Of a stretch of 39,378 bases of DNA, positions 1 to 39,222 are shown in pieces. The notes beneath the pieces were generated by a model. The model worked only from the letters and a program-made list of their open reading frames with translations, was not told the origin of the DNA and searched no databases. The position numbers were made by a program, and so were the translations under genes. Position 1 is the first letter of the stretch, and each line of letters begins with the position of its first letter. The stretch is from Parcubacteria group bacterium (GTDB lineage Bacteria; Patescibacteriota; JAUYIX01), in NCBI GenBank assembly GCA_043799475.1, contig JAZDNR010000014.1, positions 1 to 39,378 of the forward strand, given 5' to 3'.

Positions 1-23
1 AGAGTGCCCGAGTCAAGCTCGGG
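1..23 (-). repeat. Repeat module R0 (truncated by window edge)
   Basis: + sense: box remnant AGAGTG, then hairpin CCCGAG-tcaag-CTCGGG (7-23), followed by CCGAAAC. Confidence 0.5.
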
Positions 24-63
24 CCGAAACTTGAATGAAATTTGCATGGCATTACAACACTGA

Positions 64-108
64 ACTTCAAGCTCTTGCGAGCGGCCCGAACGCCCCGGGC
101 GGTCGGGC
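64..108 (-). repeat. Repeat module R1
   Basis: + sense: box ACTTCAAGCTCTTGCGAGCG (64-83; small hairpin GCTC-ttgc-GAGC), then hairpin GCCCGAACGCC-ccg-GGCGGTCGGGC (84-108), then TCAGAAC. Confidence 0.7.
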
Positions 109-153
109 TCAGAACTCAGATGCAGGACACATCGCCACAGCAAACGGTGCTTG

Positions 154-194
154 AGTGTAAGCCTTGTGGGCGCCCGACCGTAATGACGGTCAGG
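154..194 (-). repeat. Repeat module R2
   Basis: + sense: box AGTGTAAGCCTTGTGGGCG (154-172; GCCT-tgt-GGGC, a paired change relative to GCTC/GAGC), then CCCGACCGT-aatg-ACGGTCAGG (173-194), then CCGTTAC. Confidence 0.7.
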
Positions 195-264
195 CCGTTA
201 CAATGCACAAATCGACCTTATCGAAGTCAGCTGCGCTTGACTACAGGTTCGTAAAGAACCGCAG

Positions 265-292
265 AGGTTAGCAGCTCCGTTGGATTTGTCAA
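265..292 (-). promoter_or_regulatory. Sigma70-like promoter of TU1
   Basis: Minus strand: TTGACA (292-287), 16-nt spacer, TAACCT (270-265), followed by ctGCGGTTCTTT. The -35 directly abuts the T-tract of terminator 294-327. Confidence 0.6.
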
Positions 293-293
293 T

Positions 294-327
294 AAAAAAG
301 CCCGAACACCTTGAGAGATGTTCGGGC
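294..327 (-). terminator. Intrinsic terminator of TU2
   Basis: Minus strand: hairpin GCCCGAACA..TGTTCGGGC (300-327) followed by T6 (294-299). It differs by 1 nt from the terminator at 2101-2135. Confidence 0.75.
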
Positions 328-371
328 CTGGGCCATAGCCTACCTGAGGCCACCTTACTTGACCCTACCCT

Positions 372-422
372 AGTGCAATCTCAAGTTCTCACTTGAGCGC
401 CCGGTCGGGTTGTCCGGCCGGG
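372..422 (-). repeat. Repeat module R3
   Basis: + sense: box AGTGCAATCTCAAGTTCTCACTTGAGCG (372-399; CTCAAG-ttctca-CTTGAG), then CCCGGTCGG-gttgt-CCGGCCGGG (400-422), then CCGATAG. Confidence 0.65.
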
Positions 423-467
423 CCGATAGCATAGTGTACGCCACCCCACACAAGTCTGCGTGACTTC

Positions 468-509
468 AGTTCATACTCTTATGAGCGGGCCGAACACAAG
501 TGCTCGGCC
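468..509 (-). repeat. Repeat module R4
   Basis: + sense: box AGTTCATACTCTTATGAGCG (468-487; TCATA-ctct-TATGA), then GGCCGA..TCGGCC hairpin (488-509), then CCGAAAT. Confidence 0.65.
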
Positions 510-554
510 CCGAAATCTAGGTTTGCCGTAATCAAGAGGGCCTGGCGAAACTCA

Positions 555-591
555 AGTGCATTCTCTTGCGAGCGCCCGAGCATAGCTCGGG
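555..591 (-). repeat. Repeat module R5
   Basis: + sense: box AGTGCATTCTCTTGCGAGCG (555-574), then CCCGAGC-ata-GCTCGGG (575-591), then CAGATAC. Confidence 0.65.
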
Positions 592-636
592 CAGATACCT
601 TAGTGGAGTGTAACTCACGCCACTCAACCCCAGCGT

Positions 637-683
637 AGTGCATACCCTTTTGAGCGCCGAGCGCAGCCATGGCGGCCGGCCGG
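637..683 (-). repeat. Repeat module R6 (second hairpin degenerate)
   Basis: + sense: box AGTGCATACCCTTTTGAGCG (637-656), followed by a GC-rich palindromic run (657-683) instead of a clean hairpin. Confidence 0.45.
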
Positions 684-749
684 AAATATGCCCGAGCCGA
701 CACAAACATGCCGAGCACTACCTGACCAAATGTTCTTAAGGAACTCGGA

Positions 750-778
750 AGCATAAACGGCATTACCGCGCCTGTCAA
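750..778 (-). promoter_or_regulatory. Sigma70-like promoter of TU2
   Basis: Minus strand: TTGACA (778-773), 17-nt spacer, TATGCT (755-750), then tCCGAGTTCCTT. Confidence 0.6.
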
Positions 779-783
779 TAAAA

Positions 784-2099
784 TGTCCTGTAAAAGCTAG
801 ATTGTCAGGGCTCGGTAAAAGCAAGAATGTCAGGGTGTTATTAATCCTTAAATCTCACCCATGGCAACTAAGCAAACACAAAAACCGGACTACCTCTATA
901 GAGAAGAGGTAATCCGTCTCTGGCAGCGCAAACAGATCCCAATGCAGCGAGCACAAGAGTTACTGGATTGTAGCGAGCGCCATGTCTATCGGCTACAAGA
1001 CATGCTCGAGCAGCGCGGCACGTTGCGCTACCAATCACATCCTGCCTGGAACCGTACTCCGGCAGACTTGGAAGAAATCGTCTGTCGTAAAATTCGTGAG
1101 AATCCAGTCCGTAAAAACCAACACATAGCTGACCTGCTCGCAGAAGATGGTTTTGCGACTAACCGTGCCACGGTCCGTAATATCCGGATCCGCAATCATC
1201 TTAGGCAGGACCAGATCACACGGACAGCCTATGAGCGCTTTGAGCGTGAGCGAGTTGGTGAGTTGATCATGCAAGACACCTCTACCCATCACTGGGTAGC
1301 GGAATTACCAAAGCTCAAGCTCATCGCAAACCTGGATGATCACTCCCGGCTCATTCCCTTTGCACGCTTCTTTTGGCATGACGGCACGTGGCAGAATATG
1401 CTCGCGATCCGCTCAGTACTCGAGCGGTATGGCTTATTTGAGACCTTTTTTGTCGATCGGGCAGGACATTTCTCCGGACAAGATCGGTTGCTTATGGCCT
1501 CCTCGCGTATCACTCGAGGCGAAGATGAGCGCGTCCAAATTCCGCGAGCGCTCGCCGAGGCGCAGGTTACCTTATCTAAGGCGACTGCCTATCATCCTGA
1601 GTCTAAGGGCAAGATCGAGCGCTGGTTTGGGTTTGCACAAGGTCGCTTGCCCCACGATCTGCATGCGAGCACTCTTGCGGCTGCCAATACCCAACTAGCC
1701 GCCTGGGTCAGGTGGTACAACACGAAGCATATTAATGCTGAGACGAAGCAAATTCCCCTGGTACGCTTCCGTCAGGCGATGCGTGAGGGACGTAGTGCTT
1801 TTGCTCCGCTTAAACCACGCTTACCACTCGACGATATCTTCGCCTTTAGGGCAGAGCGCTTGGTCCGTAAAGACAACACCTTCTCCTATGGTGGCAAGAC
1901 GTACCACTTACAGCACGTGGGCGGTGAGCTAATGTATAAAACCTGCGAGCTACGCATCCGGCCAACTGCAATCCGCGTGTGGTACCGTGGCAATTACATT
2001 ACGTCCGTCCCATTCCAAGGACCCTTTGACCGCCCGATCGACTAACACTACTGACATCAAGCTTTTACAAAAGACTGACATTCTAGCGTTTACGTAACA
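784..2099 (+). mobile_element. IS481-family insertion sequence (about 1.3 kb)
   Basis: Terminal inverted repeats: TGTCCTGTAAAAGCTAGATTGTCAG (784-808) against the reverse complement of 2075-2099, TGTTACGTAAACGCTAGAATGTCAG (20/25 identical). A second subterminal copy lies at each end (814-833; 2051-2069). Direct repeat TAAAA flanks both sides (779-783, 2100-2104). There is a single DDE transposase ORF. Confidence 0.8.
861..2045 (+). CDS. IS481-family DDE transposase (N-terminal HTH plus rve integrase core)
   Basis: 394-aa ORF. rve-like catalytic region: DTSTHHW ... FFVDRAGHF ... HPESKGKIERWF. The N-terminal region is HTH-like. It is enclosed by the inverted repeats. Confidence 0.85.
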   Translation: MATKQTQKPDYLYREEVIRLWQRKQIPMQRAQELLDCSERHVYRLQDMLEQRGTLRYQSHPAWNRTPADLEEIVCRKIRENPVRKNQHIADLLAEDGFATNRATVRNIRIRNHLRQDQITRTAYERFERERVGELIMQDTSTHHWVAELPKLKLIANLDDHSRLIPFARFFWHDGTWQNMLAIRSVLERYGLFETFFVDRAGHFSGQDRLLMASSRITRGEDERVQIPRALAEAQVTLSKATAYHPESKGKIERWFGFAQGRLPHDLHASTLAAANTQLAAWVRWYNTKHINAETKQIPLVRFRQAMREGRSAFAPLKPRLPLDDIFAFRAERLVRKDNTFSYGGKTYHLQHVGGELMYKTCELRIRPTAIRVWYRGNYITSVPFQGPFDRPID

Positions 2100-2100
2100 T

Positions 2101-2135
2101 AAAAAAAGCCCGAACACCATGAGAGATGTTCGGGC
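2101..2135 (-). terminator. Intrinsic terminator of the helicase gene
   Basis: Minus strand: hairpin GCCCGAACA..TGTTCGGGC (2108-2135) followed by T7 (2101-2107), 76 nt downstream of the stop codon. Confidence 0.75.
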
Positions 2136-2210
2136 GAGCACTGGACCTGACGCGGTTGTGCAGCACGCTACGTCAGCGCGCTATGGTACGCAGTACCGCA
2201 ATCTCAAAAC

Positions 2211-4058
2211 CTACTTGGCCTTGAGCATCTTGATCGTCTCGGTCACCGCCTCGTCCATGCTCCGCAGAGGGAACATATACGAAGGCTTGAGCCACTCCGG
2301 CAACGCGCCGAGGAGGAACCGATGAAACACGCGGCTCACGAAGATCGTGACGCCCAGGTCCTCGCCCGATCGGATGTTCCGACCGCGGACCTGCAACGCC
2401 TCGTTCATCGCGCGCCACTGCCAACGAGCCCAGGCGCCGTTCTTGCTAAAGCGTCGCACCTCAAACTGCGCCTCGGGTGAGTCCAACGGCGGATAGCCCG
2501 GCCGCAGAAAGAAGATGCATGGCGCGATCTGTCGCGGCAAGTCGACTCCCTGTCCGTACTGCGCCGAGGTCCCGATGAGTACAGTTCCGAAGCCGCTCTT
2601 GAATTGTTCCGCCACCTGTCGTGCCGGCACACCCTCTCCGAGTGCACCGTAAGTGATGGCATCCAGCTCAATGTCCCGGGCGGCGTGTTCCATAAAGAAC
2701 TTGCGCTCCGTCTCAGACTGAACCACGACGAGCGACCGGTTGCCGGCCTCTCCCATCTCCTTGGCTGCCTTGGCGATCATGCGCAGTGCCTTGTGCACCG
2801 CCCACTTTCGTTTGTCGGGCAGCTTGTCGGAGGTGTTGGGTCCGTCGCGCAACAAGTAGACCCGGGTGTTCTCCGACGGAAATGGCGAGCCCAACTGGAC
2901 AAAATGTCCCTTGAGTCCCGTCTCGTAGCCGAGAATTGCCGGATCGCCGACCGTCGCCGAGTAGGCGATGAACTTCTTGCCCACTGCCTTCTTGATGAGC
3001 GGAGCCACGTAGTATGGCTTGATCACCAGGAAGTAGCGCGCCTTCTTCTTGGTCCCCTTGAATCCTACGTCGTTCTTCTGGAAGTAACTACACACGACGT
3101 AGTTGAGCGGGTTGTAGATCTCATTCTCCAAAGAGAACTCGAGGGACTTGATCATCCGCGGAATGCCGCGGGTCAAGTTCTCGAGGGTCTTGATGGTCTC
3201 ACGGTCGCCCACTGGATCGAGCTTGCCTGACGCGATCGCGGAGCGTACATGCCCTTCGATCTTGTCAGCGTCAAACTTGGCCAGCATCGCGATCATGATC
3301 TCCACCTCTGTGTCTTGCACCAGTGCTGGTTTGGACGACGGATGTCTACGACAGATCTGGACCAGTAGCCGGCGGAACTCATTGAGGAGCTTGGCCTGCT
3401 TGCGGTCGAACTGACGCAGGACGTAGGCGCACTTGGTAAGATGGAAGTCTGTGACGGTGTACTCGAAGATGCGCCGTGCGATCGACGCCAGCTGATGCAC
3501 TTCGTCCACTACTACGAGGGAGGGGTCAAGAGCACGCCAGCGGTGATCGAACGTCCTGTTCATCAAGAAGAACGCTGTGGTACAACCGATGATGGCCTTG
3601 GCCGCCTCCGCCTCCCTACGTAAACGAAACTTGTTCCAGAGGTAGGCGCAGGGAGTTACGCCCGGCTCCTGAGTCATGCCAGTTTCCTGGTCCACACGGT
3701 GCGGGCAGTCGAGCGAATAGCAGGGAGACTCCTGGGCGTCGATGTTGGGGACACCCCGATCCTCATAGTAGAGGCAGGGGTTATCGGACCGCCCAGTGAG
3801 CGGCTCGAGTTGCGGGTGCATGGCGACGAGCTGGCCGACCAACTGCTTGGTGGGAGTCGTATAGAAGTTGGGACCAAGACTGTTGGCTTGGCAGGCGAGC
3901 AGGCCGGTCACGCCGGCAACGGTTTTGCCGGTGCCCGGTGGGCCCTCGAGGATGACTGAGTTGTACTGGCTGAACGGATCGATCATCTGATTCTGTTGCG
4001 GACGCTTTTCGGCAAACGGAAAACTCACCTCGAGCGTCTTTTTGTCCGAGATAGCCAT
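2211..4058 (-). CDS. XPD/Rad3/DinG-family SF2 helicase with a four-cysteine putative 4Fe-4S insert
   Basis: 615 aa. Walker A GPPGTGKT, motif II VVDEVH, SAT, GTSAQYGQGVDLP and QVRGRNIRSGEDLG. Four Cys lie between motifs I and II (NPC..SPCYSLDC..TPC). RBS AAAGGAG is 4 nt before the ATG. Confidence 0.85.
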   Translation of the reverse strand: MAISDKKTLEVSFPFAEKRPQQNQMIDPFSQYNSVILEGPPGTGKTVAGVTGLLACQANSLGPNFYTTPTKQLVGQLVAMHPQLEPLTGRSDNPCLYYEDRGVPNIDAQESPCYSLDCPHRVDQETGMTQEPGVTPCAYLWNKFRLRREAEAAKAIIGCTTAFFLMNRTFDHRWRALDPSLVVVDEVHQLASIARRIFEYTVTDFHLTKCAYVLRQFDRKQAKLLNEFRRLLVQICRRHPSSKPALVQDTEVEIMIAMLAKFDADKIEGHVRSAIASGKLDPVGDRETIKTLENLTRGIPRMIKSLEFSLENEIYNPLNYVVCSYFQKNDVGFKGTKKKARYFLVIKPYYVAPLIKKAVGKKFIAYSATVGDPAILGYETGLKGHFVQLGSPFPSENTRVYLLRDGPNTSDKLPDKRKWAVHKALRMIAKAAKEMGEAGNRSLVVVQSETERKFFMEHAARDIELDAITYGALGEGVPARQVAEQFKSGFGTVLIGTSAQYGQGVDLPRQIAPCIFFLRPGYPPLDSPEAQFEVRRFSKNGAWARWQWRAMNEALQVRGRNIRSGEDLGVTIFVSRVFHRFLLGALPEWLKPSYMFPLRSMDEAVTETIKMLKAK

Positions 4059-4150
4059 GGTTCTCCTTTCTTGGCTGTGGTTTGCAGCCTAGGTTCAGAT
4101 TGACAACGAGCGCGTCTTGAGCGGATTTCAAGTCGTTTCAAGAACCGCGC

Positions 4151-4179
4151 AGCCTAGTCGAAGTGTGCAATTTTGTCAA
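4151..4179 (-). promoter_or_regulatory. Sigma70-like promoter of the helicase gene
   Basis: Minus strand: TTGACA (4179-4174), 17-nt spacer, TAGGCT (4156-4151), then gcGCGGTTCTTG. The predicted 5' UTR is about 86 nt. Confidence 0.65.
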
Positions 4180-4182
4180 TAT

Positions 4183-4212
4183 AAAAAGGGGAGCAGATGT
4201 TCTCTGTTCCCC
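4183..4212 (-). terminator. Intrinsic terminator of TU3
   Basis: Minus strand: hairpin GGGGAACAGA..TCTGCTCCCC (4188-4212) followed by TTTTT, then directly ATATTGACA (the next -35). Confidence 0.65.
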
Positions 4213-4256
4213 CGGTACTGCGTCCTAACGTATTCGACTGTGAGATGGCGTGCTAA

Positions 4257-4299
4257 ACCTTAAGCTCTTACGAGCATGGAGAACGATTACTCGTTCTCC
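4257..4299 (-). repeat. Repeat module R7
   Basis: + sense: box ACCTTAAGCTCTTACGAGCA (4257-4276; GCTC-ttac-GAGC), then GGAGAACGA-ttac-TCGTTCTCC (4278-4299), then CCTGGGC. Confidence 0.7.
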
Positions 4300-4359
4300 C
4301 CTGGGCTGTACTCGAGTTGAATGCGCCTTAGAAAACTCTGCGACAACTCGCTTAACTTT

Positions 4360-4406
4360 ACTGCAAGCTCTTGTGGAGCGGGAGGCGCCACGACCGAGAC
4401 GCCTCC
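4360..4406 (-). repeat. Repeat module R8
   Basis: + sense: box ACTGCAAGCTCTTGTGGAGCG (4360-4380; GCTC-ttgtg-GAGC), then GGAGGCG-12 nt loop-CGCCTCC (4381-4406). Confidence 0.7.
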
Positions 4407-4461
4407 TCGCGACATTAAAGAACTTGAGAATACGACGTCTGACCCAACTTATGAGAACCGA

Positions 4462-4502
4462 AGTTCAAGCTCCATTGAGAGCGCGGGGGCAACGAACCCC
4501 CG
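4462..4502 (-). repeat. Repeat module R9
   Basis: + sense: box AGTTCAAGCTCCATTGAGAGCG (4462-4483; GCTC-cattga-GAGC), then CGGGGG-caacgaa-CCCCCG (4484-4502). Confidence 0.7.
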
Positions 4503-4577
4503 CAGGTCAACTCTGCGTGGGTTCGCGCTGCGGCGAAATGCTGCTGTACACCCTGGTACATGTCTAAAGGACCAAAT

Positions 4578-4605
4578 AAGATAGCATCTATCGCATTAAA
4601 GTCAA
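4578..4605 (-). promoter_or_regulatory. Sigma70-like promoter of TU3
   Basis: Minus strand: TTGACT (4605-4600, overlapping the T-tract of the upstream terminator), 16-nt spacer, TATCTT (4583-4578), then atTTGGTCCTTT. Confidence 0.5.
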
Positions 4606-4635
4606 AAAAGAGAGGAGCAGAACGACATCTGCTCC
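4604..4635 (-). terminator. Intrinsic terminator of TU4b
   Basis: Minus strand: hairpin GGAGCAGA-tgtcgt-TCTGCTCC (4614-4635), then TCTC and T6 (4604-4609). Confidence 0.65.
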
Positions 4636-4791
4636 CCGAGTACTGCGCGACACGACTGCACAGCTTTGTACGCCCTGCCCCAGTGCAAGCTCTTATGGAG
4701 CGGGAGAACAAATTTGTTCTCCCCGTTACTCGGACTTGCAAAACGGCGCCTTACGCGAAAGCACCGTGCCTAAGAACATGTCCACGAGGGA
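4636..4791 (-). ncRNA. Non-coding unit TU4b (single module R10)
   Basis: Promoter 4798-4825. About 69 nt of leader, then module R10, a 46-nt unique segment and terminator 4604-4635. Confidence 0.5.
4682..4722 (-). repeat. Repeat module R10
   Basis: + sense: box AGTGCAAGCTCTTATGGAGCG (4682-4702; GCTC-ttatg-GAGC), then GGAGAACA-aatt-TGTTCTCC (4703-4722), then CCGTTAC. Confidence 0.7.
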
Positions 4792-4797
4792 CCAGAG

Positions 4798-4825
4798 AGA
4801 CTAGCACACCATCAAAAAAGTTCAA
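4798..4825 (-). promoter_or_regulatory. Weaker member of the same promoter family (TU4b)
   Basis: Minus strand: TTGAAC (4825-4820), 16-nt spacer, TAGTCT (4803-4798), then ctCTGGTCCCTC. Confidence 0.4.
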
Positions 4826-4826
4826 G

Positions 4827-4971
4827 ATAAAAGTGCGGGAGCAAATAGATCTCTGCCCCCGCCCACACCCGACCGTAGTGGCCCGCAAATTACCGAAGCC
4901 TTCTGTGGCCCACCCCGGTGAACGACACCCCACCTCATATCCCACAAGGGACTTTTACATCCATTGGCGAA
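4827..4971 (-). ncRNA. Non-coding unit TU4a (one degenerate module, weak terminator)
   Basis: Promoter 4978-5006. A hairpin at 4837-4860 is followed on the minus strand by GCACTTTTATCTT. No RBS-preceded ORF. Confidence 0.35.
4891..4920 (-). repeat. Possible degenerate 15th repeat module
   Basis: + sense: TACCGAAGCCTTCTGTGGC resembles the R2 box GTGTAAGCCTTGTGGGCG (GCC-ttctgt-GGC). It is followed only by a weak CACC/GGTG pairing. Confidence 0.25.
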
Positions 4972-4977
4972 CCGTGC

Positions 4978-5006
4978 AGGCTAATGTACGTTGGTCGATC
5001 GGTCAA
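4978..5006 (-). promoter_or_regulatory. Sigma70-like promoter of TU4a
   Basis: Minus strand: TTGACC (5006-5001), 17-nt spacer, TAGCCT (4983-4978), then gCACGGTTCGCC. The -35 abuts the T-tract of terminator 5008-5042. Confidence 0.6.
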
Positions 5007-5007
5007 T

Positions 5008-5042
5008 AAAAAAGGCGGTTCTCATTGCAAATGAGAACCGCC
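5008..5042 (-). terminator. Intrinsic terminator of TU5
   Basis: Minus strand: 13-bp hairpin GGCGGTTCTCATT-tgc-AATGAGAACCGCC (5014-5042) followed by T6 (5008-5013). Confidence 0.8.
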
Positions 5043-5325
5043 GCTGCCTGGCCCTACGCTAGAGGACACCACTGAACCTCTGACTACCCCACTGTAGTAC
5101 AAACCCATTACGGCGGGCGGTCCTAAGGTGAGACCGCCCTCGTCACCTTAGCGGGCAGGACTCAACGCAACGTCAGTTCAAGACCTTACGGTCGCGGGCA
5201 GTCCCGGATGAACCACCCGCCGGCACTGTATTTGACTCAGAACCGCCAAACGGAACTTGACTGTAAGCTTTTGCGAGCGAGCCCCCATTGAGAGGGCTCC
5301 GACACCACAGTTTGATTAGGAACAG
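5043..5325 (-). ncRNA. Longer non-coding unit TU5 (module R11 near the 5' end plus about 217 nt of structured RNA)
   Basis: Lies between the terminator of the 235-aa gene (5366-5397) and terminator 5008-5042. The 5' end is uncertain because no good promoter was found. It contains mutually complementary segments at 5115-5151. Confidence 0.4.
5260..5299 (-). repeat. Repeat module R11
   Basis: + sense: box ACTGTAAGCTTTTGCGAGCG (5260-5279; GCTT-ttgc-GAGC with a T-G pair), then GAGCCC-9 nt loop-GGGCTC (5279-5299). Confidence 0.65.
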
Positions 5326-5365
5326 TGAAACTAACCGGACACAACCTCAGACCTTTTGGGCAAAG

Positions 5366-5397
5366 AAAAAGGGGCAGTCTCAGAATGAGCCTGCCCC
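5366..5397 (-). terminator. Intrinsic terminator of the 235-aa protein gene
   Basis: Minus strand: hairpin GGGGCAG..CTGCCCC (5371-5397) followed by TTTTTCTTTG, 43 nt after the stop codon. Confidence 0.7.
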
Positions 5398-5439
5398 CGA
5401 CGAACGATCAGACGTGACGAAGATGAGATGACGAGATGG

Positions 5440-6147
5440 TTACGCCGTGGCCTCCGCCAGAGGTGCGGTGTTGAGGAGACGGTTGTACTCCTCCCACTCC
5501 TCGAGCTTGGCTGGACGCAGCTCATCAACCTCGTAAGTGCCGTAATCGCCACCGCAGTTCGGGCGAAAGGGCCCGAAACCGCCGAGACGCCCGGCCTCCA
5601 TGAGGATGTCGCAGATCTTCTCGAACGACGTGTAGTTCACGTCGAGATCTGCGAATCCGTCGACCACCCAACTCTCAGGAAAGAGCGGGCGCACGATAGG
5701 ACAGGGCTGACCCTTGCCCATGGAGTTCTTCAATAACCCCTGCTTGAGGTCTGGCTCCCAGGGCGTCGGCCAACCAGCGGGGGTCGGTGCCGGGGTGAAG
5801 CGGAAGTACTTGCCCTTGAGACGGAGGAAGGCGGGTAGGCGTGTCGCATTCGTCGCGCTGGTGAACTTCGCCTTGCCGTCAAACTTGACCTCCTTACCGC
5901 CCTGACGGAAGCTGGCCCAGACCCAGTCCTTGGGAATGACGAACAACGACGAGACCGGATGCAGGATGACCTTCTTGGCGCACCTCTCGCGCAGTGGCGT
6001 GACAGTGTCCTTCTGGCCCTTCTTCTTGTCGCTGAAGAAGGTATCCCAGATGTCCTGCGTGCGGTGGGGATCCTCGTAGATCGGCATGAGGCCGATGAGG
6101 CGGAAGTAGTGAAGCACCCAGTTTGTCCTTTTGCTGCCGATAGGCAT
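5440..6147 (-). CDS. Hypothetical 235-aa protein, paralog A of the island pair. The glycine-rich C-terminal motif is reminiscent of RAMP proteins.
   Basis: RBS GGAG is 6 nt before the ATG, and the gene has its own promoter and terminator. It aligns with the 194-aa protein at NWVLHYFRLIGL/GWTCHLFTLKGL and at IVRP..W..AGRLGGFGPFR..GDYGTYEVDELRP/IVRP..W..AGSLQGFGSYR..GYHGTFELEEFRP. Confidence 0.75.
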   Translation of the reverse strand: MPIGSKRTNWVLHYFRLIGLMPIYEDPHRTQDIWDTFFSDKKKGQKDTVTPLRERCAKKVILHPVSSLFVIPKDWVWASFRQGGKEVKFDGKAKFTSATNATRLPAFLRLKGKYFRFTPAPTPAGWPTPWEPDLKQGLLKNSMGKGQPCPIVRPLFPESWVVDGFADLDVNYTSFEKICDILMEAGRLGGFGPFRPNCGGDYGTYEVDELRPAKLEEWEEYNRLLNTAPLAEATA

Positions 6148-6246
6148 GACGAACTCCTTGTTCTAGCGTAGCGTTGTTTATGTCCATTTTGAGGGAACAG
6201 CTCACGACGGTGAGGTCTAGAGGCTATTCCGCCAACAAGACCCGCG

Positions 6247-6275
6247 AAGCTAGCAGATCGTCTTTTGGCTGTCAA
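6247..6275 (-). promoter_or_regulatory. Sigma70-like promoter of the 235-aa protein gene
   Basis: Minus strand: TTGACA (6275-6270), 17-nt spacer, TAGCTT (6252-6247), then cGCGGGTCTTGT. Confidence 0.65.
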
Positions 6276-6313
6276 GATTCTGTCCCGATCCTGTGCGATC
6301 CGTTGCGAACATT

Positions 6314-6348
6314 AAAAAATGAGCCAGCTTCTTGTTAGAAGCTGGCTC
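6314..6348 (-). terminator. Intrinsic terminator of the 194-aa protein gene
   Basis: Minus strand: 12-bp hairpin GAGCCAGCTTCT-aaca-AGAAGCTGGCTC (6321-6348) followed by T6 (6314-6319). Confidence 0.8.
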
Positions 6349-6426
6349 GTGCACCCTTGTGGATTACGCAGTAGGACACGACACGGTGCCTAGCTGAAGT
6401 GTAGACTGCTAGCGCAGCGAGTTCGA

Positions 6427-7011
6427 CTAGACCGGTCGGAACTCCTCGAGCTCAAAAGTGCCGTGATAGCCGTCCTTCTCAGCTCGATAGCTGCCGAAAC
6501 CCTGCAGCGACCCTGCGTCGTTGATCAGCTCGGTCACGAACTCCTCGACGTCCGGTGCTAGGCAGATGTGGCCCGAGGCCGTCCAGGGCAGTTCGATACT
6601 GGGCCGCACGATCCCGCACTTGGCCGACTTCTTGCTGTCGTACCCCTGGCGAATGTCAGCTCGCCAACCATTGCAGTTCAACTGGAGGCCCTGCCCGGAG
6701 AGGTGCAGGAGGTGACGTAAGCGCACGTACTTCTTGTTGCGTGTGTCATCCTTGGGCTTGATGGTGACGATGCGGCCGTCTGGTAGCACGCGACCCGCGG
6801 CTTGTGCGGCGAGAGCGGCCCAGAACATTTCGCGCGGGATGTGTGGATTGCCCTGATGGTCGGCGTGCAGCTTGTGACGCGCAAGGTCCTCGGGCTCGTC
6901 GCCGCGCTGGTAGCCCGGCGCACCCTTCTTTTGCATGAGGATGCTCTCGAGTCCCTTGAGGGTGAACAAGTGACACGTCCAGCCAGGTGGACGAGGCTTG
7001 AGGTGGTTCAT
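6427..7011 (-). CDS. Hypothetical 194-aa protein, paralog B of the island pair
   Basis: RBS AAAGGAG is upstream of the ATG, and the gene has its own promoter and terminator. It shares N-terminal W..H.F.L.GL and C-terminal IVRP / GFG..R / G.(Y/H)GT(Y/F)E(V/L).E(L/F)RP motifs with the 235-aa protein. Confidence 0.75.
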   Translation of the reverse strand: MNHLKPRPPGWTCHLFTLKGLESILMQKKGAPGYQRGDEPEDLARHKLHADHQGNPHIPREMFWAALAAQAAGRVLPDGRIVTIKPKDDTRNKKYVRLRHLLHLSGQGLQLNCNGWRADIRQGYDSKKSAKCGIVRPSIELPWTASGHICLAPDVEEFVTELINDAGSLQGFGSYRAEKDGYHGTFELEEFRPV

Positions 7012-7115
7012 GAGTACATACTCCTTTCGGGAGTGGGTTGATGAACGAGTTTTTGAAACGTGATGTTGAGGTGCAGCATCTCTCAGAGCTTTTGTTCAGC
7101 CCAAAAAGACCGCGC

Positions 7116-7144
7116 AAGCTAGCACGGCTTAATCGCATTGTCAA
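7116..7144 (-). promoter_or_regulatory. Sigma70-like promoter of the 194-aa protein gene
   Basis: Minus strand: TTGACA (7144-7139), 17-nt spacer, TAGCTT (7121-7116), then gcGCGGTCTTTT. Confidence 0.65.
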
Positions 7145-7155
7145 CTCCCGCAACT

Positions 7156-7191
7156 AAAAAAGAGGGAGACGTAACTTTGTTCACGTCTCCC
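7156..7191 (-). terminator. Intrinsic terminator of TU6
   Basis: Minus strand: hairpin GGGAGACGT..ACGTCTCCC (7164-7191), then CT and T6 (7156-7161). Confidence 0.7.
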
Positions 7192-7236
7192 CATGGACAC
7201 CACATGACTACGCCACATCTCGCGCCACCCAACCTG

Positions 7237-7283
7237 ACTGTAAGCTTTTCTAGAGCGAGAGCAGTTCTCGGGTAGAACTGCTC
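7237..7283 (-). repeat. Repeat module R12
   Basis: + sense: box ACTGTAAGCTTTTCTAGAGCG (7237-7257; GCTT-ttcta-GAGC), then GAGCAGTTCT-cgggt-AGAACTGCTC (7259-7283). Confidence 0.7.
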
Positions 7284-7350
7284 AATCAGGGTCTGACTCG
7301 AAAACACTAGACGTAAGGACAGGTGAGTGGACGACACTCCGCCCGACCAA

Positions 7351-7390
7351 AGTACAAGCTCGAAAGAGCTGGGAGAACAGTTGTTCTCCC
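7351..7390 (-). repeat. Repeat module R13
   Basis: + sense: box AGTACAAGCTCGAAAGAGCT (7351-7370; AGCTC-gaaa-GAGCT, stem extended by a paired change), then GGGAGAAC-agtt-GTTCTCCC (7371-7390), then CTGGGCG. Confidence 0.7.
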
Positions 7391-7464
7391 CTGGGCGCCA
7401 CATTACTCTGAACTGGCACGCAACGGCATTGTGTACTTAAGAACAAGTCCTCGATGGACACGGC

Positions 7465-7493
7465 AAACTAACATATGATCTTGTAACTGAAAA
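7465..7493 (-). promoter_or_regulatory. Degenerate member of the island promoter family (TU6)
   Basis: Minus strand: TTTTCA (7493-7488), 17-nt spacer, TAGTTT (7470-7465), then gCCGTGTCCATC. Compare TAGCTTgcGCGGTCTT in the other promoters. Confidence 0.35.
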
Positions 7494-7502
7494 GGCTGCG
7501 TG

Positions 7503-8220: not shown

Positions 8221-9783
8221 GTGGGCATGTTGAGCGAACGCGCCACGAGCCAACGTTTGCGCGAGCTTCTTGAGAGGCCCGCGGCAAACCCTCTACTGGT
8301 CCTGGCCCGTCGGCCTGGTGTCGAGGTTTACGTCGTGGGGGGTGCGGTACGCGATGCTCTGCTCGGGGTAACTGTGACCGACTTGGACTTGGTTGTGCGG
8401 GGTCTGCCGCAACCACAGCTCGAGCGAATTTTGCGGCGAGCCGGTCGCGTAGTTTTGGCCGGCAAGCGTTTTGGCGTGATCAAGTTTAGGGCGCGTGGCG
8501 CGTCTGAGAGCATTGATGTTGCCCTACCTCGCAGCGAACAGCCGACCGGTCGGGGAGGCTATCGCGATGTGCATGTTGTGGCTGACCACCTGCTGCCAAT
8601 TGAGCAGGACCTCGCGCGGCGCGACTTTACGATCAACGCCATTGCACTCAACCTACAGAGTGGCCGACAGAGTGGCAGATTGGTCGATCCCTTTGGGGGT
8701 AGAGCAGACCTCAAAGCTAAACTTATTCGGACGGTGGGGGATCCCGCCAAGCGTTTTAGCGAAGACTACACGCGTCTGTTGCGGGCTGTGCGTTTTGCCG
8801 TGCAGTTCGGTTTTGGGCTCGAGCGCCAGACCTTGCAAGTTCTACAACAACATGCGGCCGATCTCCCTCGTACGACCGCTTACCCATACCCTCAGGGTGA
8901 ACGTCTGGTGGCCTGGGAGCTAATTGGTCGCGAGGTCGGTCGTATGTTTTTTGCTAACGCCGCACGCGCAGTTGATCTTCTCGAGCAAACCAAACTATTA
9001 CACGAGGTTCTCCCGGAGGTGGATCGGCTTCGCACTATCAAACAGGACCCGAAATTTCATCCCGAGGGTGATGTCCTGACTCATACCAAGCAAGCTCTCT
9101 TGCGCCTGCACCAGGTAGAACCGGGCGCTAGTCTCACGCTCATTCTCTCAGTTTTGCTGCACGATGCTGGTAAGGCCACACATGTACAGATACGCGATCG
9201 CAAACTTGGGACCACTGTTAATCTATCCCGCCCCGCTGAGTTTTTTGCAAGTGAACGTTACCAACCCGCCCGTCAGCGCATTATGAACATCGGCCACCCC
9301 GCTGAGTCGGCGCGCATAGCCCAGCGCATTATTAAGCGACTCAAGCTTACGCAGTTTAGGCGCGATCCTCAGATAGGCCTTGATCAGATGGCCATCTTAC
9401 ATAATCTTGAAAACCATCTATTGCTCGATATTGAGAATGTTCGTCCGGCGCGTGCGGAGAAAATTCTGTTTTACCCCGATGGTCGCGTGCGTTGGGATTT
9501 GCTGACACTAATAAAGCTTGACGCAGGGCCCGGGTCGGATCGGCCGGCTAAGGTTTTTGCGCGAGTGCAGAAACTTTTGGCGCGTAAACTTGATCAAGCC
9601 GCCGAGCAGCAACTGCCGGCACCCTTGCTGACCGGGCATGATCTTAAAAAAATGAAGGTTGAACCTGGCCCGATTTACAAAGTTGTTTTGGAAGCAGTAC
9701 GCGACGCGCAGCTCGCCGGTCGGGTGACCGACCAGGCGGCTGCGCGTCGCGTTGCTAAAGATCTACTGGCGCGCCTGCGTTAG
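8221..9783 (+). CDS. cca: tRNA nucleotidyltransferase/poly(A) polymerase family protein with HD domain (probable CCA-adding enzyme)
   Basis: GGAVRD and DLDLVV nucleotidyltransferase motifs, and LLHDAGK (HD). The start is GTG 8221 or ATG 8227. Confidence 0.8.
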   Translation: MGMLSERATSQRLRELLERPAANPLLVLARRPGVEVYVVGGAVRDALLGVTVTDLDLVVRGLPQPQLERILRRAGRVVLAGKRFGVIKFRARGASESIDVALPRSEQPTGRGGYRDVHVVADHLLPIEQDLARRDFTINAIALNLQSGRQSGRLVDPFGGRADLKAKLIRTVGDPAKRFSEDYTRLLRAVRFAVQFGFGLERQTLQVLQQHAADLPRTTAYPYPQGERLVAWELIGREVGRMFFANAARAVDLLEQTKLLHEVLPEVDRLRTIKQDPKFHPEGDVLTHTKQALLRLHQVEPGASLTLILSVLLHDAGKATHVQIRDRKLGTTVNLSRPAEFFASERYQPARQRIMNIGHPAESARIAQRIIKRLKLTQFRRDPQIGLDQMAILHNLENHLLLDIENVRPARAEKILFYPDGRVRWDLLTLIKLDAGPGSDRPAKVFARVQKLLARKLDQAAEQQLPAPLLTGHDLKKMKVEPGPIYKVVLEAVRDAQLAGRVTDQAAARRVAKDLLARLR

Positions 9784-31324: not shown

Positions 31325-32680
31325 ATGGCTAAACGATCTTCCCCCAGCTCTAAGCGCCCCTGGCTCGTACCGGCACTCATTGCTGGTATCGTAGTTGTAG
31401 CCGCTCTGATTGCTTACTTTTTTGGCGATCAAATCGCGACCTTTATCCGCTACCGCGGGTCCAGCACCCCCGGCTCGGCCGCAGTCTTGGCGATTACTTG
31501 TATTGATCAAAACGAGGATGGCAGCTGCAATGGCGATACAGGGCGTGTAGCAGAGGTACAGCTGCAGCTCACTGAGCAAAGTGGCACAGTTAGCAACCAG
31601 GTAACCGATGCCAATGGTACGGCGCGTTTTTCGCCAGTTTCTTATGGGAACCACGAGATGCTAGTGACACTGCCTTTTCCTGGCCGCGTAACGGTTCCCA
31701 ATCCGATTTTGGTATCTGTCCCCGCACCGACCAGCGCAAACGATGTTGGATTTGAGGTGCAGGTTTTTGTACCGATCGCACTTACGGGTGAATCACAGTT
31801 CAGCCTCGATTTGTCTTATCTGGACCCAACTATTCCCGGAGCGCTGCTCAAAGAGGACCCGCTGTCAGTCGACCGGGCCTACACCTTTTACCCGGGCCAA
31901 GCTATCGGGGTGCGGATTGATGTCGGAGCCAATCAAGCGCTTAAAGACCGTACTCGACTAAGTCTAATCTCTGACTTTGATGATGCCTGCGTCGAGGCAG
32001 CCACTGAGATGCGTCCGGTCACAGGTAGAGCCGACGACACCAAGGTGCGGTGGGATGTAGACACGCTAAAACCAGGGAAGTTTAATCGCTCCTTTAGCTA
32101 CGCTATGCGGCTGGATGTCGCCCTTCCCGAAATTTCACCGTTAATCTGTACTGACCGCGTGACGATTTTGAGTAGCACTGGAGCCACGTTAGCTACTACC
32201 ACGCGCTCATATCAGATTGTGCCCTTGCCCACAGATCGCGCTGTGCTCGAGATGGGTAAGAGTGTAGCAGACGACAACGCAGGAGCGGTTAAAGCCGGTG
32301 ACACCCTGACCTACACGCTCGCCATCACTAACATCGGTCAAGTTGACGAGATCAGTGCCAATCTCATGGACGACATGCCGGCCTTAGTAGAAGAACCCAA
32401 GCTGATCTCGGCACCAAACCCCAAACAGGTTGAGGTCTCTAGTACAGGTGGCAAAAATGGGACCGGTTTTATTAAAGTTACTGGTCTACAAGTGCCAGTC
32501 ACAAGTCAAGTAGGTGAACAAGTTACGATTAGCTTTAGCGTTAAAGTTAAGGCCGACGTTAAACAGTTCGAGCGCATCGACAACTACGTTACGCTAAAAG
32601 GAAAAGATGGTGCCTATGTTGAGGCGCGTAAAGTGATTAAAGTCGGTCAAGCCATAAACTTTGTAGAAGCTAAGCGCTAG
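31325..32680 (+). CDS. Membrane-anchored surface protein with SdrD-B-like and DUF11 repeat domains
   Basis: N-terminal TM segment, a DANGTARF..YGNHEM (Cna-B/SdrD-B-like) region, and the DUF11 signature GDTLTYTLAITNIG. Confidence 0.7.
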   Translation: MAKRSSPSSKRPWLVPALIAGIVVVAALIAYFFGDQIATFIRYRGSSTPGSAAVLAITCIDQNEDGSCNGDTGRVAEVQLQLTEQSGTVSNQVTDANGTARFSPVSYGNHEMLVTLPFPGRVTVPNPILVSVPAPTSANDVGFEVQVFVPIALTGESQFSLDLSYLDPTIPGALLKEDPLSVDRAYTFYPGQAIGVRIDVGANQALKDRTRLSLISDFDDACVEAATEMRPVTGRADDTKVRWDVDTLKPGKFNRSFSYAMRLDVALPEISPLICTDRVTILSSTGATLATTTRSYQIVPLPTDRAVLEMGKSVADDNAGAVKAGDTLTYTLAITNIGQVDEISANLMDDMPALVEEPKLISAPNPKQVEVSSTGGKNGTGFIKVTGLQVPVTSQVGEQVTISFSVKVKADVKQFERIDNYVTLKGKDGAYVEARKVIKVGQAINFVEAKR

Positions 32681-37791: not shown

Positions 37792-39222
37792 ATGACGACT
37801 TTAAGCGATTTTTTTTCGCCCCTGCGGAGGCTTAGGCAGTTTGCTACGGCCCGCGTTAAGCTGGTGACCTGGTTTGTGGCCGTCTTGGGAGGGGTTCTCA
37901 TAACTTTTGTGGCTGCACTGATTGGGCTGGTGCATCACAACCTTTTTGTAACTCTCAACGAGCGCCTTATAACCAACACCCAACAACTCGCCGATCTCAT
38001 CGAGCTGCGCGAGGGAGAACTGCTCTTTGCCAAGCTCGACCAAATCAATCTCGAGAACGAGGCCCTGCGGAGTTTTTCCGTCCAAATGGTAGCGCCCGAC
38101 GGGCAAATTCTCTGGCAAGCCGCCCGCAACAAGTTGCCGGTCAGCGCGGCCGTACAAAAAGCGCTCGACTCCGACGAGTCAATTCTTAACAGTGTCACTC
38201 TCCCCTTTGAGCGTTATCAAGTTCTTGCCAAACCAGTCACGCGGGAGGGCGAATTGTTGGGTGTTCTCCAGTCGGGACTCAGCTTACGCGATATTGACGA
38301 GGCCATCGCTAAACTTTTACTCGGTGCTCTCTTTACTATCCCTATCGCCCTAGGACTGGCTGGCATTGGTGCTTGGTTTTTAGCCGTCAAAACCCTGCAT
38401 CCCATCGAGGAGAACCTCCGTCGTCAGCGCCAGTTCATCCAAGATGCCTCGCATGAGTTACGCACCCCACTGGCTATCATCCAGAGCAATATTGATGTGG
38501 CCTTACAAAATCCAGAACCAACCCTCACGCAACTTACCGATAAACTTATTACAGTCAACGAGACTACTAAGCGTATGGGTAAAATTATTACTGATCTCTT
38601 TACCCTAAGTACCTCAGACAATCAATTGTTGCGACTTAAACCTAAACTTATCGAGCTCGATAAGGTGGCGCGCGATGTTGTCAAACAGATGAAGAGCCTG
38701 GCGCGTAAAAAACAACAAGAGTTGATTCTGAGCGAGGAGGAGGAACTTATTGTGCATGCTGACGAGGACCGCATAAAACAAGTTCTCACTATCTTGGTCG
38801 ACAACGCCATTAAATACACGCCCGCCCAAGGACGCATCGCGGTGAGCGTTGTCAAAACTCCGGCTATCGACTACGCCAAATTAAGCGTGGTCGACAACGG
38901 ACCGGGTATCTCTAAAACTGACCAAGAAAAAATCTTTGAACGCTTTTATCGGGTTGATAAATCACGGTCGCGTGAGCTGGGGGGCAATGGTTTAGGTCTT
39001 GCTATTGCCAATACACTGGTGCAACGCCAACAAGGGCACATCAGCGTCCAAAGCAAACTAGGCCTTGGTACGCGCTTTGATGTGTTTTTGCCCCTCGTAG
39101 CCAAAAAGTCAAAATCCGGGCGCAGCTTTGCCATTCCGGGCTTACCGAGCCTGCCCAAGCTGTTCACCCGGTCAACCAAAGTCGTGGATCATCCACAGAT
39201 TGATCAGCCAAAGGTCTCCTAG
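37792..39222 (+). CDS. Sensor histidine kinase (HisKA plus HATPase_c)
   Basis: Two TM segments, H-box ASHELRTPL, N-box DNAIKY and G-boxes DNGPGI and GGNGLGLAI. Confidence 0.9.
   Translation: MTTLSDFFSPLRRLRQFATARVKLVTWFVAVLGGVLITFVAALIGLVHHNLFVTLNERLITNTQQLADLIELREGELLFAKLDQINLENEALRSFSVQMVAPDGQILWQAARNKLPVSAAVQKALDSDESILNSVTLPFERYQVLAKPVTREGELLGVLQSGLSLRDIDEAIAKLLLGALFTIPIALGLAGIGAWFLAVKTLHPIEENLRRQRQFIQDASHELRTPLAIIQSNIDVALQNPEPTLTQLTDKLITVNETTKRMGKIITDLFTLSTSDNQLLRLKPKLIELDKVARDVVKQMKSLARKKQQELILSEEEELIVHADEDRIKQVLTILVDNAIKYTPAQGRIAVSVVKTPAIDYAKLSVVDNGPGISKTDQEKIFERFYRVDKSRSRELGGNGLGLAIANTLVQRQQGHISVQSKLGLGTRFDVFLPLVAKKSKSGRSFAIPGLPSLPKLFTRSTKVVDHPQIDQPKVS

Follow-up and report, generated by a model that had tools for sequence, protein, structure and literature searches.

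The stretch of DNA analysed here (the window), 39,378 nt long, represents an entire contig in the metagenome-assembled genome (MAG) of a Parcubacteria-group bacterium of the candidate phyla radiation (CPR). Its region 1-7500 is very probably a chromosomal VIPR (Viral Interference Programmable Repeat) locus, which contains two genes encoding Vipr proteins of the RAMP (repeat-associated mysterious protein) type, the gene of an Fe-S helicase of the XPD/DinG family and approximately 24 guide RNAs (vrRNAs), encoded on the minus strand in approximately eight predicted transcripts. The hairpin-bounded "unique segments" described here in an initial annotation can be assigned to the guide RNAs of VIPR, a kind of system that is known but very new, and the anatomy of the units is accounted for by two features absent from that annotation, the pentad periodicity of the segments and the neighboring RAMP and helicase genes. 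Four VIPR characteristics are found in the locus: a Vipr protein, a pentad repeat, a 3' cap and the locus layout, with vipr-1, vipr-2 and the helicase gene interspersed with 5 kb of non-coding units, as in a minimal VIPR locus.

VIPR, a system for recognizing DNA under the guidance of RNA, was first described in 2026 (bioRxiv 10.64898/2026.04.26.720920, 10.64898/2026.04.26.720927). According to the text of these preprints, Vipr is a small ancestral RAMP that polymerizes on the vrRNA, with one protomer per repeat. The vrRNA is about 100 nt long, with 9-16 YNNGG pentads and, behind them, a 3' tail that is structured; the GGY is sequestered and the NN dinucleotides pair with double-stranded DNA by a 1-nt-skip rule. 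Repeats were detected by a rule of at least four units, and the alternative repeats YNNNG, NNNGG and NNNNG are noted. VIPR loci usually consist of vipr and one vipr-accessory (vap) gene. Seven types are distinguished, of which types III-V occur with predicted nucleases or helicases, and some types are enriched in defence islands. The experiments reported in the same text concern only phage-borne type II systems (bioRxiv 10.64898/2026.04.26.720920, 10.64898/2026.04.26.720927).

In the window, 22 units were parsed, along with two candidates in the 3' untranslated regions (UTRs) of the helicase gene and vipr-2. All of the small units lie on the minus strand and neighboring units abut head to tail. 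Each follows the same order: a mini-hairpin of 4-5 bp, a 7-nt box (UUGNACU, AUGUUCU-like), 7-16 tandem pentads (mode 9, equal to 45 nt) and a GC-rich 3' hairpin, with a whole-unit length of 77-128 nt (median 89). The mini-hairpins comprise 15 different stems (GCUC/GAGC, GUCC/GGAC, GUUC/GAAC, GACC/GGUC, GCC/GGC and others), in which 81 of 82 pairs are standard. The 3' hairpins, 7-13 bp in length and unrelated in sequence (mean z of -4.6 vs shuffles), close every one of the approximately 23 tracts; they begin with a G, which in many units is unpaired. In the last unit of each transcript, the 3' hairpin is followed by a U-tract and forms the terminator, such that the earlier proposal of a terminator occupying the position of the inter-unit hairpin is confirmed. 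Strong minus-strand terminator hairpins are located at 329-298, 2135-2108, 4637-4612, 4862-4835, 5042-5014, 6348-6321 and 7192-7163; a scan yielded 15 terminator-like sites, compared with 7.0 +/- 2.3 in shuffles.

The pentads were read in a register fixed from outside the tract, by cutting 5-mers from right after the 7-nt box instead of choosing them from the tract itself. Among the 199 pentads thus obtained, position 5 is a pyrimidine in 94% and G in 0.5% (p=2e-42), and position 4 is G in 64% (p=6e-22). Position 3 is G in 35%, which is not significant, and positions 1-2 are unbiased. The consensus is therefore NNNGY, the YNNNG variant of the VIPR vrRNA repeat and not YNNGG. The five best YNNGG runs of the whole 39-kb window all fall inside guide units on the minus strand. 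For the detection of period-5 tracts, a crude pyrimidine run-length detector was too noisy, and a log-odds segment score was used in its place.

The identification of the units as vrRNAs is a prediction from the sequence. In the direction of transcription they are as follows.

7371-7459, minus strand: vrRNA g1, first unit of the transcript 7156-7470; mini-hairpin GTCC/GGAC, box TTGTTCT, 48-nt tract (7392-7439), 3' hairpin
7259-7370, minus strand: vrRNA g2; mini-hairpin AGCTC/GAGCT, box TGTACT, 67-nt tract of 13 pentads (7284-7350), 3' hairpin
7164-7256, minus strand: vrRNA g3; mini-hairpin, box TTACAGT, 44-nt tract (7193-7236), 3' hairpin serving as terminator, U-tract to about 7156
6321-6412, minus strand: candidate vrRNA v2 in the vipr-2 3' UTR, weaker than the other units; about 12 pentads (6353-6412), no clear box, terminator hairpin 6321-6348
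5279-5370, minus strand: vrRNA f0, located behind the vipr-1 terminator (5371-5397) and lacking a separate promoter; 9-10 pentads (5301-5348), 3' hairpin
5194-5278, minus strand: vrRNA f1; mini-hairpin, box TTACAGT, 38-nt tract (5222-5259), 3' hairpin
5115-5193, minus strand: vrRNA f2; mini-hairpin GACC/GGTC, box TTGAACT, 35-nt tract (5140-5174), 3' hairpin
5014-5114, minus strand: vrRNA f3; box TTGTACT, 53-nt tract of 10-11 pentads (5043-5095), terminator hairpin 5014-5042
4835-4962, minus strand: vrRNA e1, a single-guide transcript; 79-nt tract of 15-16 pentads (4863-4941), terminator hairpin 4835-4862
4702-4792, minus strand: vrRNA d1, a "leader" in the initial annotation; mini-hairpin GTCC/GGAC, box ATGTTCT, 48-nt tract (4725-4772), 3' hairpin
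4614-4701, minus strand: vrRNA d2; mini-hairpin GCTC/GAGC, box TTGCACT, 44-nt tract (4638-4681), terminator hairpin
4483-4572, minus strand: vrRNA c1, first unit of the transcript 4183-4580 (promoter 4578-4605); 51-nt tract (4504-4554), 3' hairpin
4381-4482, minus strand: vrRNA c2; 55-nt tract (4407-4461), 3' hairpin
4278-4379, minus strand: vrRNA c3; 58-nt tract (4302-4359), 3' hairpin
4188-4275, minus strand: vrRNA c4; box TTAAGGT, 43-nt tract (4214-4256), terminator hairpin, with the helicase promoter directly after it
2108-2208, minus strand: vrRNA h1; 12-13 pentads (2140-2204, about 63 nt) right behind the helicase stop codon, terminator hairpin 2108-2135
656-744, minus strand: vrRNA b1, first unit of the transcript 294-748 (promoter 750-778); mini-hairpin GTTC/GAAC, box ATTTGGT, 43-nt tract
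574-655, minus strand: vrRNA b2; 44-nt tract (593-636)
487-573, minus strand: vrRNA b3; 43-nt tract (512-554)
399-486, minus strand: vrRNA b4; 43-nt tract (425-467)
300-397, minus strand: vrRNA b5; 43-nt tract (329-371) reading AGGGT AGGGT CAAGT AAGGT GGCCT CAGGT AGGCT ATGGC CCA, terminator hairpin
172-260, minus strand: vrRNA a1, first unit of a transcript starting near 260; mini-hairpin GGTTC/GAACC, box TGTAGT, 43-nt tract
84-171, minus strand: vrRNA a2; 45-nt tract (109-153)
6-82, minus strand: vrRNA a3; 38-nt tract (26-63); the array runs past the contig end

Each of the three protein genes is trailed on the minus strand by a promoterless pentad tract and a 3' hairpin, behind the helicase stop codon (2108-2208), the vipr-1 terminator (5279-5370) and the vipr-2 stop codon (6321-6412). 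Read-through transcription or cleavage out of mRNA 3' UTRs may be the source of these guides. In Rfam, no family matched the unit modules at gathering thresholds or at E<=10, the hammerhead ribozyme included; ribozyme-interspersed arrays are therefore unlikely at this locus.

The second line of evidence comes from the proteins, which so far have been annotated only as hypothetical or as generic helicases.

6427-7011, minus strand: vipr-2, a paralogous Vipr-type RAMP protein of 194 aa
5440-6147, minus strand: vipr-1, a Vipr-type RAMP protein of 235 aa
2211-4058, minus strand: an Fe-S superfamily 2 helicase of the XPD/DinG family, 615 aa, presumed to be the vap gene

The family profile, built from 60 sequences, matches the PDB entry 36pp_D, "SUSP1 Vipr protein", with E=1.4e-12 over residues 3-192 of 202. 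The two paralogs share 29% identity (E=6e-13) and the Vipr hidden Markov model (HMM) recognizes vipr-2 with E=5e-37. While a word-indexed protein search with vipr-1 returned only vipr-1 itself, an exhaustive HMM search yielded a family of 274 cluster representatives. Neither protein matched Pfam, NCBIfam or PADLOC, and the only match was a weak one to phrog_4652. The AlphaFold2 model of vipr-1 has a pLDDT (per-residue model confidence) of 93.5, and its top Foldseek matches are RAMPs of the Csm3/Cas7 kind. Within the family, the motif G..G(L/F)G.(F/Y)RP is conserved, and R153-P154 in the thumb and R195-P196 in the G-loop of vipr-1 are almost invariant. In the alignment of the family profile with the SUSP1 protein, R179 and the thumb residue R138 are conserved and W178 is replaced by F/Y; the aromatic residue and the Arg by which the second G and the pyrimidine are held are retained. 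The G-loop residue aligned with D177 is S/D/A/P: it is P in vipr-1 (residues 190-196, encoded at approximately 5560-5580 on the minus strand) and S/D/A in most relatives. Since D177 is the reader of the first G of GGY, the apparent loss of its equivalent, as judged from the alignment, would agree with the relaxed NNNGY repeat.

The helicase matches Helicase_C_2 and DEAD in Pfam and typeIV_DinG in PADLOC (E=3e-40), and four cysteines (C95, C113, C118 and C137) are invariant. Its AlphaFold2 model (pLDDT 92.4) most closely resembles E. coli DinG and archaeal XPD, with template-modeling (TM) scores of 0.63-0.70, whereas CasDinG scores approximately 0.60 and ranks 25th or lower. Nearly identical promoters and 5'-UTR starts precede the helicase gene (4145-4185) and the two vipr genes (6232-6275 and 7101-7145) on the minus strand; they consist of TTGACA-N17-TAG(C/G)(C/T)T followed by a sequence like GCGCGGTCTT. 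Their likeness suggests common regulation or the duplication of a promoter cassette.

Related loci provide the third line of evidence. They were located through the helicase alignment; the Vipr alignment has no conserved stretch of 7-10 residues. In all eight contigs fetched via helicase homologs, a vipr gene lies just upstream. A scan of species-representative genomes found 74 helicase loci, with a vipr gene at most 5 kb away in 69 of them, and of the five loci lacking a nearby vipr, three end at a contig end. CPR/Patescibacteria lineages are named in the labels of most of the 74 records, and other or generic labels occur in a few. Contigs L009, L016, L021, L023, L024, L048, L054 and others come from MAGs labeled Gammaproteobacteria, Woesearchaeota or Aenigmatarchaeota. 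These labels are suspected to be wrong, because nearly all other carriers of the helicase are labeled CPR/Patescibacteria. The commonest layout is vipr, approximately 1 kb of non-coding DNA and the helicase gene; two vipr genes occur in 8 of the 69 loci, and the neighboring genes are housekeeping genes, in the window as well as in the other loci.

Period-5 pyrimidine tracts are present in 56 of the 69 loci, with a median of seven per locus and unrelated primary sequences. They number 591 in sense and 86 in antisense orientation, and 546 are situated in non-coding DNA adjoining both genes. Although position 5 alone entered the score, position 4 is G in 52% of the pentads of these tracts; position 3 is G in 25%. 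The 45 nt behind the tracts fold with a mean of -15.6 kcal/mol, vs -8.5 for random 45-mers. No single 5' handle motif is common to the clade, and the layout of the RNA genes varies, from a promoter and terminator for each RNA (L001, L002) to hairpin-repeat arrays (L007). In L001 (6260-9900), an AT-rich relative, a separate TTGACA-N17-TAnnnT promoter and a separate terminator serve each guide, the box (UGCAGU or UACAGU) stands at the transcription start without a mini-hairpin, and ACUACAG or AGUGCAG forms the end of many tracts ahead of the terminator; a pairing between the 5' box and the 3' ACUACAG-like motif was considered and rejected, as one mismatch per pair persists. In L007 (9340-9740), from the complete CPR genome CP129473.1, near-identical hairpin repeats resembling CAGAATCTTCGAAAGGAGATTCTG separate the pentad tracts in the interval between vipr and the helicase gene, a layout nearer to that of CRISPR than the variable hairpins seen in the window. 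Where L002 and L003 overlap, their sequences do not differ, and they thus give no information on guide turnover.

The period of five also decides how the length of the segments is to be understood. In the initial annotation, the units were leader-array-terminator cassettes, with a 3'-hairpin-flanked segment of a fixed length of approximately 45 nt, as in the spacers of CRISPR, and with leaders that are not guides. The terminal segments on which this model was based exist, with 43 (329-371), 43 (4214-4256), 44 (4638-4681) and 44 nt (7193-7236), within 1-2 nt of the 44, 44, 46 and 45 nt originally given, and 10 of the 22 tracts are 43-45 nt long. That the last segment always measures 44-46 nt nevertheless fails for the terminal tracts of 53 nt (5043-5095), 79 nt (4863-4941) and approximately 63 nt (2140-2204). 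Longer internal segments were likewise found where they had been indicated, with 55, 58 (originally 60) and 67 nt at 4381-4482, 4278-4379 and 7259-7370, but they are not the general case: the internal tracts of 399-655 have lengths of 43-44 nt, and those of 84-171 and 5115-5278 have lengths of 35-45 nt. The tracts of the window range from 35 to 79 nt and change in steps of five, with a length of 5n+3 in 13 of 22 (p=6e-5). From these lengths and the unpaired first G of the 3' hairpin it follows that the pyrimidine of the box, the tract and the first hairpin G together make up whole pentads, and a tract of 43 nt corresponds to nine. A quantization by 5 nt thus replaces the fixed length, and the length of about 45 nt is explained as nine presumed protomer-binding units. 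In the 69 homologous loci, of the kind that had been proposed as a check of the constraint, the tracts extend over approximately 10-25 pentads; since their mode is 13, the mode of nine pentads is specific to the window locus.

The leaders proved to be something other than leaders. Six predicted transcript starts can indeed be aligned over the -35 and -10 regions, the mini-hairpin of 4-5 bp (GTCC..GGAC or GTTC..GAAC) and the 7-nt box, an architecture that they share; the third example adduced for the likeness of the leaders, TTAAGAACATTTGG, stems from another mini-hairpin, of which it forms the loop and 3' arm, and is alike only through a CTTAAG palindrome. Because each "leader" has the same 5' mini-hairpin and box followed by 8-10 in-frame pentads, it is the first guide of its transcript. 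The sequence CCGGTAC or CCGAGTAC, said to follow the terminator stems, does so in only two of the four terminators cited, and GTAC/GTAAC closes approximately 5 of 23 tracts. The duplication of units remains plausible: the terminators 294-327 and 2102-2135 are 97% identical, and the 5' handle and the GGGGAGAAC...GTTCTCCC hairpin are common to the units 7371-7459 and 4702-4792, which differ in most of the tract. Taken as a whole, the model of cassettes with non-guide leaders and a fixed segment length is improbable.

A degenerate or minimal type IV-like CRISPR-Cas system, with the hairpins taken as diverged repeats, the unique segments as contiguous spacers, the helicase as CasDinG and the RAMPs as Cas7/Cas5, is suggested by the RAMP fold, the typeIV_DinG match in PADLOC and the alternation of hairpins and unique sequences. 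Type IV-A (Csf complex and CasDinG) resembles the window in combining a Cas7-like RAMP filament on a guide, as proposed here for the window, with a DinG-family helicase and no evident nuclease. CRISPR repeats are near-identical, however, whereas the repeat families of the window are 60-78% identical and their hairpins wholly different in sequence, and the "spacers" follow a strict 5-nt periodicity that is not known from any CRISPR spacer; the guide is periodic and gapped. The locus has no CRISPR array, and in Pfam, PADLOC and NCBIfam its proteins gave, beyond the typeIV_DinG match, no match to a cas family, including Cas1/Cas2, Csf1 (Cas8-like), Csf3 (Cas5) and Csf5/Cas6. The protein profile matches Vipr directly by sequence, the Fe-S cysteines of the helicase are all four retained, and its structure is nearer to those of E. 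coli DinG and XPD than to CasDinG. A type IV-like CRISPR system is accordingly very improbable. TIGR-Tas (PMC12045711) shares with the window arrays of short non-CRISPR guides, in parasitic bacteria and phages, and, as presumed for the window, a split or non-contiguous reading of the target, but Tas proteins carry a Nop domain, whereas the window proteins are RAMPs with no Pfam domain match, and tigRNAs are 36 nt long with two spacer halves instead of pentad tracts. TIGR arrays were dropped, as were CRISPR-like arrays, integron attC sites, RNA repeats of type III toxin-antitoxin systems and retron RNA, on account of the variable repeat sequence, absent partner genes or the period-5 signal.

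A reading of the units as small regulatory RNAs of an ordinary kind, or as stacked terminators or attenuators, unrelated to the proteins and with a period of five by compositional accident, would agree with the lack of an Rfam match and of a target, but is scarcely credible given the extreme statistics of the anchored register and the sense-strand tracts beside vipr and the helicase gene in the 56 loci of different species.

Several points weigh against the assignment of the locus to VIPR. Neither the window (35%) nor the clade (25%) shows conservation of the canonical first G of GGY. In place of the invariant pseudoknotted tail described for SUSP1, the 3' element consists of a hairpin that varies in sequence, although no search for pseudoknots was made here. 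Transcript ends and unit boundaries are predictions, and the hairpin boundaries were set by eye. Exact 1-nt-skip (NNx) patterns of six guides had no match in IMG/VR, and those of two guides none in JGI metagenomes; these searches covered exact patterns only, and phages of CPR bacteria are poorly sampled. A scan of the contig itself under five skip rules gave no self-target above background. Finally, a role in repair is conceivable for the helicase, whose link to vipr would then be one of synteny alone.

The locus can be compared directly with the type II VIPR of Escherichia phage SUSP1 and of the P. fulva prophage, as described in the preprint text. Common to them are a small single-RRM (RNA recognition motif) RAMP with the thumb Arg and the aromatic-Arg-Pro of the G-loop; guides of approximately 80-130 nt made of tandem pentanucleotides in which a pyrimidine and a G are fixed and the bases between them vary; a structured 3' element; vrRNAs upstream of, between and downstream of two protein genes; and the absence of a CRISPR array and adaptation genes. 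Unlike in SUSP1, the pentad is NNNGY, with the first G of GGY not conserved and S/D/A/P at the position equivalent to D177; a 5' mini-hairpin and a 7-nt box are added and up to five units share a transcript; the partner is the Fe-S XPD/DinG helicase instead of the DNA-binding vap1; and the system is chromosomal, in a CPR bacterium and among housekeeping genes, with no relative of the helicase family in IMG/VR. In its helicase accessory gene, cellular location and YNNNG-type repeat, the locus resembles VIPR types III-V as these are outlined in the preprint text.

By homology with the SUSP1 system, one Vipr protomer would bind each pentad and sequester its G-Y, while the variable bases would be displayed for gapped pairing with double-stranded DNA, such that the ribonucleoprotein could bind DNA sequence-specifically and silence it. 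The helicase might then be loaded or recruited at the bound DNA site, by analogy with CasDinG in type IV-A CRISPR. From their positions, the 3' hairpin would halt the filament and shield the 3' end, two tasks that would fall to the terminator in the last unit. The mini-hairpin and box may set the 5' end of the guide and the site at which polycistronic precursors are processed.

The preprint text names neither CPR/Patescibacteria nor DinG/XPD. The arrays in it are staggered, hammerhead-interspersed or single, and it makes no mention of arrays delimited by hairpins in which the units have a 5' mini-hairpin and box. The 5' handle, the hairpin-delimited polycistronic arrays, the Fe-S XPD/DinG partner and the chromosomal spread in CPR thus go beyond that text, and may or may not fall inside its seven types. 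It is conceivable, if rather doubtful, that the CPR clade constitutes a distinct VIPR type, defined jointly by pentads in which only G-Y is fixed; by guides that stand between a 5' mini-hairpin with box and a 3' hairpin free in sequence, and that are released from polycistronic precursors with no ribozyme involved; by the Fe-S XPD/DinG partner; and by vertical inheritance in CPR chromosomes instead of carriage by phages. Were this so, three bases would be free in each pentad and the code could depart from the NN/1-nt-skip rule, for example by reading contiguous triplets, and the combination of a RAMP filament with DinG would be a machine parallel or ancestral to type IV CRISPR.

As a VIPR system, the locus is a richly stocked example, with its approximately 24 guides, in a cellular, genome-reduced CPR bacterium, and its clade is found in at least 69 species-level genomes. 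It provides a testable guide anatomy of 5' mini-hairpin, box, n pentads and 3' hairpin, and the pairing of a RAMP with an XPD/DinG helicase opens the proposed relationship between VIPR and CRISPR, type IV especially, to experiment.

Outside the locus, runs of 22-23 pentads occur at 32546-32660 and 38640-38749 on the minus strand, antisense to coding genes; every fifth base in them is a pyrimidine, but position 4 lacks the G and hairpins do not flank them, and they are probably due to chance. Within the guide array lies an ISNCY/IS481-like insertion sequence (815-2093) with a transposase gene at 861-2045 on the plus strand and 35-nt inverted ends at 815-849 and 2059-2093. It is placed between the terminator of the guide behind the helicase gene (2108-2135) and the promoter of the next transcript (750-778). 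A gene of the CCA-adding/poly(A) polymerase family adjoins the VIPR locus both in the window (8221-9783, plus strand) and in a distant CPR genome (L004, 6727-8232), which hints at conserved chromosomal synteny.

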